The notes under the pieces were generated by a model. That model saw only the letters and a list, made by a program, of their open reading frames with translations, ran no database searches and was not told the origin of the DNA. Of a DNA stretch of 64,000 nucleotides, positions 38,371 through 47,544 are shown piece by piece (within the stretch, counting starts at the first letter, position 1; each line of letters starts with the position of its first letter). This DNA comes from a virus. Taxonomy: Duplodnaviria; Caudoviricetes. The DNA lies in the IMG/VR virus record IMGVR_UViG_3300028048_000065, positions 85,499 to 149,498 of that record, one strand, 5' to 3'. A program made the position numbers and the translations under genes.

Positions 38371-38712
38371 TCAGAGTGGCAATGTTTTATATTTCATTAC
38401 CCTGTTTCCATCTTTTTCAACAAAAACATTTTTTTCTTCATTAACCTAATTAATATAATCTATTAACTCCTATTCTGAGGCAAACCATTCTCCTCCGCTT
38501 CTCAAGCGTAACTTACCAAATCTCCTATGGAGTTTAGATTCATCTTCCATTGTTCCTTGAAAATATCCCAAACAAAATATTTTCTTTGCCGACCCTGTGG
38601 ATAATTGTTTAATGCGTTTTTCAACTGTTTTTGTTGTAAACCCGATTTTGATGTATTCTCCATCAGATAGAAAATACACCTTCCCTTTAACATTTTTCTG
38701 CAAAATAATCAA
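38371..38712 (-). CDS. GIY-YIG family (T5orf172/MUG113-like) protein
   Basis: VYF...IKIGFT...RIKQL...E..LH..F...GEWF; extends across TAGs to TGA 38371. Confidence 0.75.
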
Positions 38713-40071: not shown

Positions 40072-40782
40072 ATGAATTATGGTTACATCAGAGTTTCCAC
40101 CGACAAGCAGACTGTCGAAAATCAGCGTTTTGAAATTCTTCAATTCTGTCAACATGAAGGCATTAAAATTGACGGTTGGATTGAAGAAACCGTATCTGGT
40201 GGAAAAGCGCCTGACAAGCGCAAATTAGGATTACTCCTAAAAGAAGTCAAAGAAGGCGATTGGATTATCTGTTCCGAACTTAGTCGTCTTGGACGCAGTT
40301 TATTTATGATTATGAACATACTTTCTCTCTGCATGGAAAAAGGTGTTATAGTACGTTCAATTAAAGATAACTTCACTTTAGGAGACGATTTGCAATCCAA
40401 AGTCCTCGCTTTTGCTTTTGGTCTTTCCGCAGAAATTGAAAAATCTCTTATATCGGCCAGAACAAAAGCAGCTCTCGAAGAAAGAAAAGCTCAAGGGGTA
40501 GTCCTTGGAAGACCAAAAGGTAGTAAAAATAGTAACAACAAACTCATTCCGCACCAAGACGTTATCAAGACTCTTATTAAACAAGATAATACTTATGCTG
40601 AAGTAGCTCGTTTGTTTCATGTTAATCGCTCAACCATGAAAAGATTTTGTGACGAATATAACATTAAACGTCCCTTTAATCGCAACAAAAAATCAACGAA
40701 TTTTATCGTTGTCAACAAAGAACCCGTTTCTGACAACAATAATGAACAAACTGTTAATAATCTATTAACAATTAAAATTTAA
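40072..40782 (+). CDS. Serine recombinase (resolvase/invertase family)
   Basis: YGYIRVST, SRLGR, GRPKG and C-terminal HTH; the only convincing plus-strand gene. Confidence 0.9.
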   Translation: MNYGYIRVSTDKQTVENQRFEILQFCQHEGIKIDGWIEETVSGGKAPDKRKLGLLLKEVKEGDWIICSELSRLGRSLFMIMNILSLCMEKGVIVRSIKDNFTLGDDLQSKVLAFAFGLSAEIEKSLISARTKAALEERKAQGVVLGRPKGSKNSNNKLIPHQDVIKTLIKQDNTYAEVARLFHVNRSTMKRFCDEYNIKRPFNRNKKSTNFIVVNKEPVSDNNNEQTVNNLLTIKI

Positions 40783-41340: not shown

Positions 41341-41775
41341 TTAGCCGATTATAAAATCGTAATCTTCTTGGGAAAATTTGTTTTTCTTTAGCAGGTCATT
41401 AAGTTGGTCTTTTCTAATATTACCAACTTTATAAAGTTCTTTAAAAGTCTCTTTCTTAAGAACTATACCATTCTCAATTAACTCATCCATCAAATTTTGA
41501 GATGCAATCATCGAACTAATTTTCTCGTCAGCCATGGTAAGTGAAATTATCGTTCCTTGCTCCATCAATTCACCCGCGCCATCGGTTTCAACAAGAATTA
41601 CCTCACCCCACGAACCATCCATCGCTTGCCCCTCTAAGCTATAAGGAGTGCTATTATACGCAATCCCCTCAGCCTCCTTTAGAACACAAGGAACAAAAAC
41701 ACCATCTTGCTTCTTAATATAAGTGGGAACATCAACTTTTCCAAGGAGCTCTTCCCGTTTGTAAATTCGATACAT
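41341..41775 (-). CDS. Hypothetical protein
   Basis: 144 aa, overlaps the upstream gene, has RBS. Confidence 0.65.
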   Translation of the reverse strand: MYRIYKREELLGKVDVPTYIKKQDGVFVPCVLKEAEGIAYNSTPYSLEGQAMDGSWGEVILVETDGAGELMEQGTIISLTMADEKISSMIASQNLMDELIENGIVLKKETFKELYKVGNIRKDQLNDLLKKNKFSQEDYDFIIG

Positions 41776-42223
41776 TTTTTCCTCCTTTCACTATTTGTAA
41801 AATAATTTTCAAATTGTTTATTGAAGTATTATAAAACTCATAGTTCCAAAGCCAAAAATCTGCATGGTCTTCTCTTTTGAAAGGAAGACAAAATTCGCTA
41901 CTCCAAACTCTATCCCAAGCTTCTAATCTCTTTTTAGATTCTGCTTCTGAACTATTTGGCTTATTTACTAAAATAGAAAAAATCTCATCTATGATTTTTC
42001 CTCTTTCCATACCCTTTCCATCATCGTTTGTAGTGAAATAATCTAAACTAACCTGCGAAGTTACAAATGCAAGGGGAATATCATTATAAAATAGAATATC
42101 TCCCTTACATGAAAGTATAGACCGAGCGGGTATGTTTACATTATCTCTGTTAAGAGATAAACCTCTATATCTCTTACGCGCGACAAAAGTTTTAAAATTA
42201 CTGTGATTATTCTGGGTAGACAT
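41732..42223 (-). CDS. DGR-associated hypothetical protein, paralog of the RT C-terminal domain
   Basis: Aligns by eye with the last ~150 aa of the RT. Confidence 0.75.
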   Translation of the reverse strand: MSTQNNHSNFKTFVARKRYRGLSLNRDNVNIPARSILSCKGDILFYNDIPLAFVTSQVSLDYFTTNDDGKGMERGKIIDEIFSILVNKPNSSEAESKKRLEAWDRVWSSEFCLPFKREDHADFWLWNYEFYNTSINNLKIILQIVKGGKNVSNLQTGRAPWKS

Positions 42224-43937
42224 ATTTTTTATTAACCTTCTTTAAAATTTTTCTTAATTCTTTTTCTGAAGCAAACCACAATGACCTTTTCCAAATCCAT
42301 TCCTTCTCATTCTTTGTGCTTAATCTGTAAGCCTTTGCCTCCTCGCAATTGTTTAGAGCCTTCCATTGTTTTAATCTCGCAGACATCTACTGTTCCACCG
42401 TATACTGAGTCTATTCTAAAATCTTACAGATTAAATTTCCTCTTCTTATTCCATGTCCATCATTATTGATACAATAATGGTTATAAAATGTTTCAGACCC
42501 TATTACACAAATAGCTTTATTCTTTCTAACAAGAAGTCCTTTTCTGCTTTTCAAGCGGGTGTTTCTGCTAATAATAACAGTATTACCAAACAGGTCTTTT
42601 CCGCTAAATGGTCTGTAACAAACATATTCTTCACCTATATCATGTCTATTCTCTTCCATAATTCTATCAATCTCTTTAAACAATTCTGGATTTTTCTTTT
42701 TCGCGTCATTATAATTATACATAAACACATCATCGTAATCGAAACCAAAATACTGTTTAAACATTTTCATTAGCTTTCCTTTTCGATAACTATCGTTCCA
42801 GTTATCATAATAAGAAAAAGAAGATTGCGCAAAGCCTCTTAAGCTTTCGTATGTTCTATTCCCAAGTTCTATCTCTCTTTTAAACATTCTTAATCTTCTT
42901 ACTGCGGCAGGATAAGACTTTTTACTTCCTTTCGTTAAAATCTTTCCGCTTTCTAATATCTTAAATTTAATTTTACAATATCTAAAACTTTTAGTAAAAG
43001 GTATATAAACCGTTTTCTTTAAATTTAAGTTCATTCCATATTCTGAGGCTTTGTCTTTTATCTCTTTAATAAGCTTTTTATAATCAGTGTTTGGAGGAAC
43101 GATTATCCTGTAGTCATCCATGTAATGTGCAGACATTTTAAGTTGCTTTTGGCATAGTAACCAAGTATCCAACAAGGATGGAAAATGTATCATTTCAGCC
43201 TAACTTGGTTCTAACCCTAAAGGCATCCCCTTATCATTCAAGTCAGTTTCATCTAAAACTCTTTCACCCTCGCGGTAAACATAATTACCATTTTTGTCCT
43301 TTAGATACATTTTACCTTCAAAATGTGGATACACATATGCTTCTAAAGCATCTTTAATATTTTCATCAAAGAAATATCTATTATGGTGTTCTTTAATTAC
43401 TTTCTTGTCAGCAGATGGGAAATACTATGAAAAATCTATCAAAATAATCCGACCTTCACGCCCGTATTTCTTATAATGCTCTACAAGGTCTTCTTTTAAA
43501 TTGCTTAAAGAAAAGTGAAATCCTTTTCCGTCAAGACTTGCTCCATTATCATATACCATATGCTTAGTGTATATTGGAAGCAATATTTCTTTTGTGATAA
43601 ATTTGTCTGATTGTCTATCTTGTACTCTTGGTGCAGAAATATATCTTTTCTTTCCTCTTTCTGTTAAATAGAACTTATCATATGGAAATCTAAGATGAAT
43701 ATTTTCTTCAAACTTTTTAATGTTCCTTGCGGTAGAAGAAAATAATGTACTTTTAAAAAGTTGCACACTTCTTTTCCAAGAAACACCAGTGATACACTTT
43801 AAACCATAATAAAACATCAAGGTAAAATCTTTTATCTTATCTTGTAAATTAAGCTATTCGTAATCAGACTTTCTTTTATCTAACCTTTTTTGCTTACGTC
43901 TTTGATAACGCTTTTCTTTACGTTCAGACGAATTCAA
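42207..43937 (-). CDS. DGR reverse transcriptase with C-terminal extension, 576 aa with TAG=Gln
   Basis: TTG start with AGGAG RBS; ERGKKRYI..P..QDR, IDFS, GMPLGLEPS-Q(TAG), HYMDD; ends TAA 42207. Confidence 0.92.
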
Positions 43938-44345: not shown

Positions 44346-44473
44346 CACCGCAAAACCAGTCGAGCTGTTCGCGTTGTTATTGTTCGCGTTGCCGTTGTTG
44401 TTCACATTACAGAAATTGTTGGTGTTCGTGTTGTTACATTACACGGAACGCTCCCACCAATTGTTCGCGGAAC
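44346..44473 (-). repeat. DGR template repeat (TR)
   Basis: 128-bp ungapped match to 45256-45383; all 22 mismatches are at TR adenines; AAC/AAT rich. Confidence 0.95.
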
Positions 44474-44510: not shown

Positions 44511-45098
44511 TTAGCCCAATGATGTATAACTATTGACAGAAACATCATAAACTAAGTTTTCTTTCATACCTAAAATTGTATATTGATTTTCTATAATTTT
44601 TCTAAGTAAAGGAGTATAACAAACACCATCTTCCACTTCATTGTATTCCTCTCCAACTTTTTTCTTTATAGCGATTCTAACCTATCTTAAAACGCCTTCA
44701 AGAAGTTTAATTTCCTTTGTCATCATATCACAAATTTTTAAAGCCTCTCCGCTTGAAGGGAGAGTTTTCTTAGCTCCTTCAAATCCGTTATTTGTAATGC
44801 TAATATCATACCCTATACTAAACCAGCTATCCATATTCTTAACTGCACCAATGGCATGATAAATCAACTGCTCTTTATAATATAATCCTTGCAAACTCGT
44901 ACTTGGGGTATAAATTGTATTTATTTCAGACACGGTGTTCATTAAAACATTTAAACTATCTTTTATGTTAGAAAACACAAATTTTTTAGTGTTTGCAGAA
45001 AATCGGTCATAAGACTGACCGACCGCTATTGTTAGATTATATGCAGTATTAATAAATTCTGCTGTACTAACTTTTCTATCTGAGGCGAGAACACTCAT
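44511..45098 (-). CDS. avd: DGR accessory variability determinant (Avd-like), 195 aa with TAG=Gln
   Basis: Helical protein between target and TR starting MSVLASDRKVS; continues past TAG 44682 to TAA 44511. Confidence 0.7.
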
Positions 45099-45240: not shown

Positions 45241-46263
45241 TCACACCCTGAAGGCCACCGCAAAACCAGTCGAGCTGCTCGCGACGCTACCGGCCGCGCT
45301 GCCGTTGTCGTACACAAGACAGAAACGGCCGGTGCTCGTGGTGTCACACCACACGGAACGCTCCCACCAATTGTTCGCGGAACTCTGGCTGGTGGACTGA
45401 TACTTTACTCGACTGTTGCCAAGTTTGTAATACTCAACCTGAACCTGATGGTTTTGTTCGTAAGAATTTGCATAAGTTCTTGCTCCAAAAATCTCAAACT
45501 CGGCAAGCAGATAAAATTTGTCTTGCGTTGTTGTTACATATGAAGCATTATTATTTTGACTTCCACCAGTATAGTTATGAGAATAAATTGTTGATGTTTT
45601 AACAACATTCTTCAACTCAGAGGGAATTGCGCTCTCAAATTGCGGAATTATATTTTTTCTCATGTGGCAATCACGCCACCCACCATCTGTGATACCTGAT
45701 GTATTCATTTGGAAATTGGAGAATAAGGCGATGTCTTTCTTTTCTGTTAGATTGTTTTTAAAGCTATGGAATAAAATACCGCTTCCCTCGACATCTGGGT
45801 TATGGCTAAAACTTGCGATAAATACACCATAAGAGTCGTTAAAGGCTGTATTTGTTATTGTGCCATTTATGGCGACCATCTTTATATCACCAAGAGACCA
45901 CATATTCTAAGCCACTCCTTTGAAAGAGACTTCAGAAATTTGACTCCATGTGCATTCGTCTAAAATTGATGAATAAGGAAATGCTACCACTTCATATAAT
46001 TTACTTTCCTTAATTTCTTTTGTAATAGTATTTATGTTTACCCCATCTGTCGCCGTTATGGTATATTCTCCATATCCCGCTCCATAAAAATCATGGGTTC
46101 CATCCGAAGAAAAGATATAGGATTGTCCCCGTCCATTAAGAGAACAAGTCACTGTGGTCCCCGCCAACGAGGTAACTCTAATTACAATTCCCTCTCCAGC
46201 AGGAATGAGCATATCATACCCCTCCGCTGTTTTTTCCATCATTTGTATTACTTTTGTTGCCAT
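45241..46263 (-). CDS. DGR target protein (DUF6273/C-type lectin-like C-terminus), 340 aa with TAG=Gln
   Basis: Two ORFs join at TAG 45907; WWERS...FCLV...GFAVAFRV C-terminus contains the VR. Confidence 0.85.
45256..45383 (-). repeat. DGR variable repeat (VR)
   Basis: Adenine-specific differences from TR at the 3' end of the target gene. Confidence 0.95.
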
Positions 46264-47079: not shown

Positions 47080-47544
47080 TTATACAACTTTAAACCATAA
47101 GTCTCCAACTTTTTGCCCTGTTGGAGTGTTCGCTTGTACTGGAATGGAACTTCCACCAGCTTCAATTGTTACAGCACCAGTTTTTCCATTTACAGAAGTT
47201 ACAGGATACGGTGGAGGATTACTTGCGGAGTATTGCTTTACATTATCAACATTGCCTAATCCTACATCGCTTTTACTTGGAGTCCAAGTAGATGGGCGAG
47301 CACCAACGTCAGTAGCCGTTAACGTAACTGCCCCTGTCTTAGAATTAACAGACTTTACTGGATACGGTGGAGGATTAGATGATGAATATTGTTTTACATT
47401 ATCAACATTACCTAAACCAATATCAGCCGCACTTAAAGTTATCGCTGTACCTGTTTTATTGTTAACTGAATGCACAGCAGAGGGGTCATAAATATCATAA
47501 CTTTCTGTAACATTTGGCAACTTAATTCTCTTAATATACGCCAT
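47080..47544 (-). CDS. Fibre-like protein with internal repeats
   Basis: Two copies of GLGNVDNVKQYSxSNPPPYPVxSVNxKTGAV. Confidence 0.7.
   Translation of the reverse strand: MAYIKRIKLPNVTESYDIYDPSAVHSVNNKTGTAITLSAADIGLGNVDNVKQYSSSNPPPYPVKSVNSKTGAVTLTATDVGARPSTWTPSKSDVGLGNVDNVKQYSASNPPPYPVTSVNGKTGAVTIEAGGSSIPVQANTPTGQKVGDLWFKVV

Follow-up and report, generated by a model that had tools for sequence, protein, structure and literature searches.

What does a diversity-generating retroelement (DGR) gain from a reverse transcriptase (RT) that ends in a copy of the protein encoded next to it? The question is raised by a locus in the 64,000-nt stretch of viral DNA analysed here (the window), which covers positions 85,499 to 149,498 of the 149.5-kb virus record IMGVR_UViG_3300028048_000065 (Duplodnaviria; Caudoviricetes). 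An initial annotation, made from the letters alone, had described a DGR RT whose C-terminal part resembles the product of the overlapping downstream gene, and had suggested that the shared domain is an additional DGR component. We found that the window, from a gut-type phage, carries a DGR whose RT has acquired and retained a copy of a neighbouring gene family without a name, phrog_29409, for which we use the label X. This family, whose members lie next to the RTs of one DGR clade or are fused to them, may be an undescribed helper.

The Reverse Transcriptase Ends in a Copy of the Downstream Gene

When TAG is read as glutamine, positions 43937..42207 of the minus strand form a single open frame of 576 aa (RT::X) with five in-frame TAG codons (Q28, Q171, Q246, Q509, and Q517). 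Judged from the sequence, the gene starts with TTG and has an AGGAG-type ribosome site just upstream, and in alignment with an unfused homologue its N-terminus falls at residue 3. Residues 1 to ~404 match an unfused 389-aa DGR RT along its whole length at 41% identity, and the window protein has ~170 aa extra. BLASTP comparison of residues 400–576 with the 163-aa free X protein gave E = 1e-9, with 22% identity over 143 columns. This bears out the paralogy that the initial annotation had proposed by eye for the 576-aa reading, including the motifs quoted there. The paralogous stretch comprises residues ~435–570, and both copies match phrog_29409 (E = 2.4e-11 for RT residues 453–570 and E = 3.3e-31 for free X). 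The RT had also been called longer than typical. It is longer than its unfused relatives by virtue of the C-terminal domain, but its length alone is not unusual (PMC5758913).

A further claim was that the gene is hidden under genetic code 11. The full protein is split into pieces under that code, but the junction itself is visible: a code-11 open reading frame (ORF) at 43193..42411 (260 aa, residues 249–508) runs from the palm and thumb of the RT into the first half of the extra domain. This fragment is the recorded protein P0032, and it carries both RVT_1 and the X domain. As the junction lies inside an ORF that is open under code 11, the fusion is independent of recoding. The RT::X layout was also found in independent contigs (L004, L005, L102, L111, L100, and L101), and an RT::X cluster is recorded with 193 member sequences. 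We therefore rejected an assembly or frameshift artefact. As the RT gene has five TAG codons and the free X gene has none, the fused enzyme would be made only when TAG is decoded as glutamine.

Two other loci show variants of this arrangement. In a 144-kb phage with other in-frame TAGs, RT and X lie in one frame with a single TAG between them (L054:4864-6417), and this DNA could give RT alone or RT::X depending on decoding, a possible switch. The RT frame at L012:3837-6002 runs on through a ~580-nt spacer as far as the start of X, ~580 nt beyond the point at which the RTs of its sister loci stop. Either a frameshift or a further variant of extension or fusion may account for it.

The Fused Enzyme Belongs to a Complete DGR That Works in Nature

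The RT carries the DGR-type LGLEPSQ and YMDD motifs, whose residues are invariant in 22 homologues, and matches RVT_1 (E = 1.6e-9) and the phrog_1423 RT family (E = 5.7e-38). The motif (I/L)GxxxSQ marks DGR RTs. The Q of LGLEPSQ is TAG codon 246 of the window RT and corresponds to an invariant glutamine in the 22 homologues (Q216 there), which supports both the reading of TAG as glutamine and the DGR assignment. The template repeat (TR) and the variable repeat (VR) were compared over 128 nt, and all 22 mismatches fall on TR adenines. VR lies within the last ~45 codons of the target gene, which matches Pfam DUF6273 (E = 3.8e-11) and phrog_37900 (E = 1.4e-41) and has homologues at the same position in about 60 related loci. 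The RT motifs, the family matches and the TR/VR pair confirm that the enzyme is a DGR RT, as first annotated. The window element is a complete DGR, with a target carrying VR, an Avd-position protein, TR and RT.

The 195-aa Avd-position protein matches phrog_30516 (E = 4e-4), and its homologues fill the same slot in nearly all related loci. Its likeness to Avd consists of position and predicted helical character only. No Pfam match was obtained for 15 family members, nor a bAvd match in PDB sequences, and with isoelectric points (pI) of 6.5–9.4 (mean 7.9) the family is near neutral, not strongly basic, compared with the reported pI of 9.5 for Avd.

Evidence of activity came from L004 and L005, which were obtained from different samples and share an identical TR and the layout of RT::X followed by free X. 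The two differ at 32 positions in 7 kb, 25 of which are in VR and all of these at TR adenines. This shows that the fused enzyme is functional in nature. This ongoing diversification is seen in close relatives, with RTs 89% identical to that of the window, and not in the window phage itself.

The same pair of contigs has a second cluster of six differences in an upstream gene (L004/L005:971-1028). These are mostly C/T and not adenine-specific, and the cluster is probably not DGR-driven.

X Is a Conserved Family With an SH3-Like Predicted Fold

An exhaustive profile search placed 488 representative clusters in the X family at E ≤ 1e-3, most of them stand-alone proteins of 125–145 aa. Nearly invariant positions include Y13, S56, D68, G71 and R74 (in an NDDGxGxxRG loop), and F130, and a W-x-W-N motif is widely kept. 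The AlphaFold2 model of free X, based on a 99-sequence alignment, has a predicted local distance difference test score (pLDDT) of 91 and consists of a six-strand SH3-like barrel (residues ~10–67) followed by a small helical domain.

Searches with the sequences gave no significant match in Pfam (99 members), NCBIfam or PDB sequences. Rows for S100 and EF-hand proteins (E ~ 0.8) were rejected, as they reflect the NDDGxG loop only. The name “isoaspartyl peptidase,” given by RefSeq/Atlas to the X homologue of phage FP_Taranis, found no support in Pfam, NCBIfam or the other libraries searched. With the model as query, the barrel reached Z 5.0–5.5 over ~50 residues to many SH3 domains in VIA, with the RecD2 SH3 domain on top, which is a generic resemblance. 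Foldseek likewise gave SH3 domains with probabilities up to 0.9 but E > 0.1, and nothing in the PDB at E ≤ 0.001. A structure search of BFVD returned uncharacterised phage proteins only. The SH3 resemblance of X says nothing about function.

X Is Found Next to or Fused to One Clade of RTs

Searching with X gave 96 loci in viral and bacterial contigs, with hosts named as Oscillospiraceae, Christensenellaceae and other Clostridia; the search used a 5-sequence alignment, which biases the set towards closer relatives. Across these loci the gene order of DUF6273 target, Avd-position gene, RT and X is conserved, and the cultured Faecalibacterium phages Taranis, Roos, and Pioen have the same order. 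Where enough upstream context was available, an RT lay just upstream of X in about 85–90%. When the RT was used as the starting point, X was directly downstream in 78 of the 79 relatives (52–100% identity) with enough downstream sequence, and the two genes were usually separated by a few bases or overlapped. X also follows RTs that are only 28–30% identical to the others (L118 and L120). The DGR cassette of L118 has X as its last gene, and what comes next is a lysogeny module encoded on the opposite strand, not the late-gene block. All five long representatives among the 150 best X family matches consist of RVT_1 with X at the C-terminus, and a separate search for longer X proteins found RT fusions only and no other partner. 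Thus, the co-occurrence to be checked after the initial annotation was largely borne out: X is nearly always beside or fused to this RT clade, but some X loci have no RT.

The Fusion Is Recurrent, Old, and Under Selection

An RT tree of 34 rows requires at least two switches between the fused and the separate state, and an approximately unbiased (AU) test rejected a single fused clade (p = 5e-53). The fused RT of L101 is sister to that of L114, where RT and X are separate. A single fusion origin had been allowed by a first RT tree and was overturned after L111, L114, L118, and L120 were added. The fusion or fission of RT and X has happened at least twice.

The layout with both a fused and a free copy recurs in L004/L005 and in L102 and L111, whose RTs are about 51% identical to that of the window. 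The X tree places the fused domains of the window, L004, and L102 together in one supported group, an indication that the duplication is old, and the free X of the window groups with crown-group free copies, not with its own fused domain. The ratio of non-synonymous to synonymous substitution rates (dN/dS) between the window and L004 was 0.05 for the fused X domain, 0.05 for the RT core and 0.09 for free X; these values are approximate because dS is near saturation. The family motifs are retained in all fused copies. A functionless appendage should decay, especially beside a free copy, and selection on the fused domain thus favours the idea that X is used by this RT clade. A selected, recurrent and persistent fusion in an active DGR is the strongest single fact that we have.

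Comparison With Known DGRs and Their Accessory Proteins

The window element resembles the BPP-1 type DGR (mtd-avd-TR-brt; architecture B1, PMC5758913) in having a target with a 3′ VR, a small helical gene, TR and RT on one strand, in its adenine-specific TR-VR differences, in an RT with LGxxxSQ and YMDD, and in a lectin-fold target of the receptor-binding type. It differs from it by the extra ~140-aa C-terminal domain of the RT and the free paralogue behind it, by an Avd-position protein that is near neutral and unrecognisable as Avd by sequence, and by genes written in a code with TAG as glutamine. The DGR of Faecalibacterium phage FP_Taranis (gp68 target, gp70, gp71 RT, and gp73), together with those of Roos and Pioen, is the same cassette with the same X downstream of the RT, but X is separate there, one or two small ORFs from the RT, and no fused copy is present.

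The DGR accessories described are Avd, HRDC, MSL, and CH1, and C-terminal extensions of up to ~150 aa occur in about 20% of DGR RTs, without identification (Wu et al., 2018, PMC5758913). The extra domain of the window RT is like those extensions in its position after the thumb and in size, and differs in that it can be identified as a copy of a free-standing family of about 490 representative clusters. MSL is either a free gene or, in three RTs, a weak MutS_I-like C-terminal extension (PMC5758913). Msl proteins and MutS_I-like RT extensions are comparable to X in being small, roughly neutral, free or fused, and co-occurring with avd (PMC5758913; Bacteroides DGRs, bioRxiv 10.1101/2024.11.15.621889). 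They appear to differ from it in predicted fold, and X has no detectable homology to the MutS mismatch-recognition domain, as judged with MutS_I sequences. An hhalign comparison of the 99-sequence X profile with five MutS_I (PF01624) domains from host MutS genes gave a probability of 0.1% and one aligned column. MutS_I gave no match in RT::X or free X and was not among the 25 families listed for the 99 X members. Set against the fold of MutS domain I, the structural matches listed for the X model, a list that is not exhaustive, are SH3 domains.

HRDC (PF00570) had no Pfam match in RT::X or free X at E ≤ 0.1 and was not among the families listed for the 99 X members. CH1 proteins have 160–169 aa, are acidic (pI ~4.7) and occur only in DGRs without avd, HRDC or MSL (PMC5758913). 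By this description X is set apart from them, as it is mostly 125–145 aa, has a pI of 7.6 and always occurs with an Avd-position gene. Profile comparison likewise rejected a relationship of X with the ORF downstream of the Hankyphage RT or with the C-terminal region of that RT (probability ≤ 1%). In a literature search we found no description of X as a DGR component; the tentative neighbours PAG1-4 of Wu et al. lay outside that search. The suggestion that X falls outside the described DGR accessories therefore holds for the classes tested (MutS_I, HRDC, and, by its description, CH1), none of which it matches.

Several giant open frames (1,500–3,600 aa) with an N-terminal MutS_I-like domain were observed in L108–L110 and at further places in the genomes G006, G007, and G010, from Oscillospiraceae hosts. 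G007 has eight MutS_I-like matches besides true MutS.

Weighing the Link Between X and the DGR

Several observations weigh against X being solely a DGR component. Of the loci found with X that have enough upstream sequence, about one in eight lacks any RT. No RT is nearby at L032, L035, L036, L037, L044, L086, L094, L006, and L116, in the last case within 6 kb of X, and PF00078 is absent from five whole records with X, one of them a 100%-complete phage with terminal repeats. Wide occurrence of the family without DGRs, which was named beforehand as counting against the suggestion, was thus found in part. The RT-less copies occupy four separate places in the X tree, and in an RT-less clade X has dN/dS of 0.09–0.29 with its motifs intact. 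This is purifying selection, so X is not solely a DGR part. The genes upstream of RT-less copies vary: X starts 3 nt after a DUF6273 gene in L032, follows a CBM_5_12 protein in L006, with neither target nor RT, and follows a RuvC-like gene in L113. Conversely, the RT of L171 belongs to the clade and has no X, and X is likewise missing from DGRs further away that share the layout, such as that of Roseburia phage Shimadzu (RT 33% identical). A block of small late genes after the fibre gene (X, XkdX-like, DUF4376, and CmpB-like) is conserved in the window and in distant relatives and is shared with L039, so that adjacency alone could explain much of the co-occurrence. All loci come from one broad group of Clostridia phages, and the counts are therefore not independent events. 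Finally, the X family has a pI of 7.6 ± 1.5 and is not consistently basic, and the searches described above gave no fold or motif that indicates a specific activity. The proposal of an additional DGR component thus stands in part: it has the tight adjacency to the RT and the strongly selected fused copy in an active DGR on its side, but X loci without RT against it.

Its main rival, which we regard as somewhat unlikely yet as the one to take seriously, is that X belongs to the late-gene backbone, at the boundary between receptor-binding protein and lysis genes, and has nothing to do with reverse transcription. The avd-TR-RT unit would then be a cassette gained and lost between the fibre gene and X, the co-occurrence would reflect synteny, and the fusions would be tolerated by-products of two closely packed or overlapping genes. 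The purifying selection on X in RT-less phages is what a backbone gene would give, as is the position directly behind the DUF6273 gene in one of them. In L006, which is closely related to L007, X is retained after another kind of fibre-type gene, and the conserved block downstream of X and the grouping of the window free X with crown-group free copies fit this explanation too. Related gut phages differ in whether they carry a DGR cassette (bioRxiv 10.1101/2024.10.15.618418), and Wu et al. warned that DGR neighbours in phages may simply be conserved phage genes (PMC5758913). A by-product of adjacency is difficult to reconcile with the dN/dS of 0.05 of the fused domain and with its persistence across lineages with about 50% RT identity, since a functionless appendage should be lost. 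It also has to accommodate that fusion or fission recurred with the RT as the sole partner seen, and that X in L118 ends the cassette with no late-gene block behind it.

It is improbable, in our view, that X serves the diversified receptor-binding protein instead, for instance by helping the DUF6273 lectin-like tip to assemble or by acting as its adaptor, and is linked to the DGR only via that protein. A DUF6273 gene lies upstream of X in nearly all loci with enough context, including most of the RT-less ones, and a slot directly after the fibre gene is generally typical of fibre accessory genes in phages; but L006, L113, and L116 have X and no DUF6273 gene nearby, a chaperone fused to an RT under strong selection would be hard to explain, and searches of Pfam and BFVD found no similarity of X to known fibre chaperones. 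Far less probable still is that the extra domain is a described accessory (MSL/MutS-like, HRDC or CH1) or that the fusion is an assembly or frameshift artefact. MSL does have the same fused-or-free pattern, a similar size and a neutral pI (PMC5758913). Against this stand the profile comparison with MutS_I, the absence of MutS_I and HRDC matches, the modelled SH3-like barrel with helices, and the acidity of CH1 and its restriction to DGRs without avd; the artefact is contradicted by the independent contigs and the 193-member cluster.

A Possible Role for X

We give an even chance to X being an RT-coupled binding module that has an additional, RT-independent role. X would then be a non-catalytic module used by this RT clade. 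In most members it would act in trans, encoded by the closely packed and often overlapping gene downstream; several deep lineages would have it in cis as the C-terminal domain of the RT, and the window lineage keeps both forms. The step at which X acts might be the handling of nucleic acid or the tethering of the RT after or alongside cDNA synthesis. Such a role would have analogies in group II intron RTs, where DNA-binding domains come after the thumb, and in SH3-like DNA-binding domains. The family would in addition have a role that needs no RT.

A more far-reaching proposal, which we put forward tentatively and would doubt rather than assert, is that phrog_29409 adds a new class to the DGR accessories Avd, HRDC, MSL, and CH1. 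As an SH3-like/helical adaptor, X would bind the RT or the nucleic acids that serve as its substrates, and efficient mutagenic retrohoming would require it in a large clade of Clostridia-phage DGRs. It would act in trans or from the C-terminus of the RT, with the fused and the free copy working together in the window lineage.

To our knowledge, it is not known how DGR cDNA finds and replaces VR, and among the accessory factors only Avd has a defined role. As a conserved protein that is repeatedly fused to the RT and strongly selected in an active element, X is a concrete candidate for the missing step. It also gives an identity to one type of unexplained C-terminal extension of DGR RTs. Gene calling with the standard code hides such fusions in phages that recode TAG. 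FP_Taranis, Roos, and Pioen are cultured phage-host pairs in which X is testable, and the E. coli DGR platforms that are being built for directed evolution offer another setting. If X should be a backbone gene after all, the locus would serve as a warning that genes conserved next to phage DGRs may belong to the backbone.

Gene Layout, Genetic Code, and Other Observations in the Window

The features of the element and the adjoining gene are collected in Table 1.

Table 1. Positions of the DGR features and of the neighbouring context gene in the window.
Feature	Position	Strand	Description
DGR target gene	45241..46263	(-)	340-aa tail or receptor-binding type protein; one in-frame TAG; C-terminal DUF6273 (C-type-lectin-like)
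VR, 128 nt	45256..45383	(-)	3′ end of target gene; 83% identical to TR
Avd-position gene	44511..45098	(-)	195-aa helical protein between target gene and TR; Avd-like by position only
TR, 128 nt	44346..44473	(-)	Adenine-rich: 41 A in 128 nt
RT::X gene	42207..43937	(-)	576 aa plus stop; readable only with TAG as Gln
RT core (residues 1-405)	42723..43937	(-)	Fingers, palm, and thumb; LGLEPSQ and YMDD
Linker of RT::X	residues 406-434		Between RT core and fused X domain
Fused X domain (residues 435-576)	42210..42635	(-)	Diverged phrog_29409 copy
Free X gene	41732..42223	(-)	163 aa; no TAG; 17-nt overlap with the RT::X stop
Context gene	41341..41775	(-)	144 aa; XkdX-like C-terminus; part of the conserved “after the fibre” block behind X in relatives

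The 144-aa context gene has a weak match to Phage_XkdX (E = 0.024), and the equivalent gene in L111 matches the same family at E = 8e-7.

Recoding extends well beyond the DGR: dozens of long minus-strand ORFs in the window close up only when TAG is read as an amino acid, with 12 in-frame TAGs in one frame of 2,082 aa and 13 in another of 1,736 aa. No tRNA genes were found in the window. The free X gene contains one CGG codon (42122-42124, codon 34), which stands at a family-consensus glycine (VNIPxG-T) and is a single data point; the one CGG of the RT (codon 163) is at a variable position.

On the plus strand, positions 40072-40782 encode a putative serine recombinase, recognised by eye from its resolvase-like N-terminus. 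It runs opposite to the otherwise conserved late genes that enclose it, with the XkdX-like gene on one side and DUF4376 on the other. In L102, a related phage that is also recoded, a Resolvase gene is likewise found close to the DGR. A T5orf172/MUG113 (GIY-YIG-related) gene with two in-frame TAGs is found at 38371-38712, amid late and lysis genes. A 154-aa ORF (47080-47544) has an internal direct repeat of 101 nt (47168-47268 and 47324-47424, 78% identical). This repeat, probably of the fibre type, codes for two copies of a GLGNVDNVKQYS..NPPPYPV motif.

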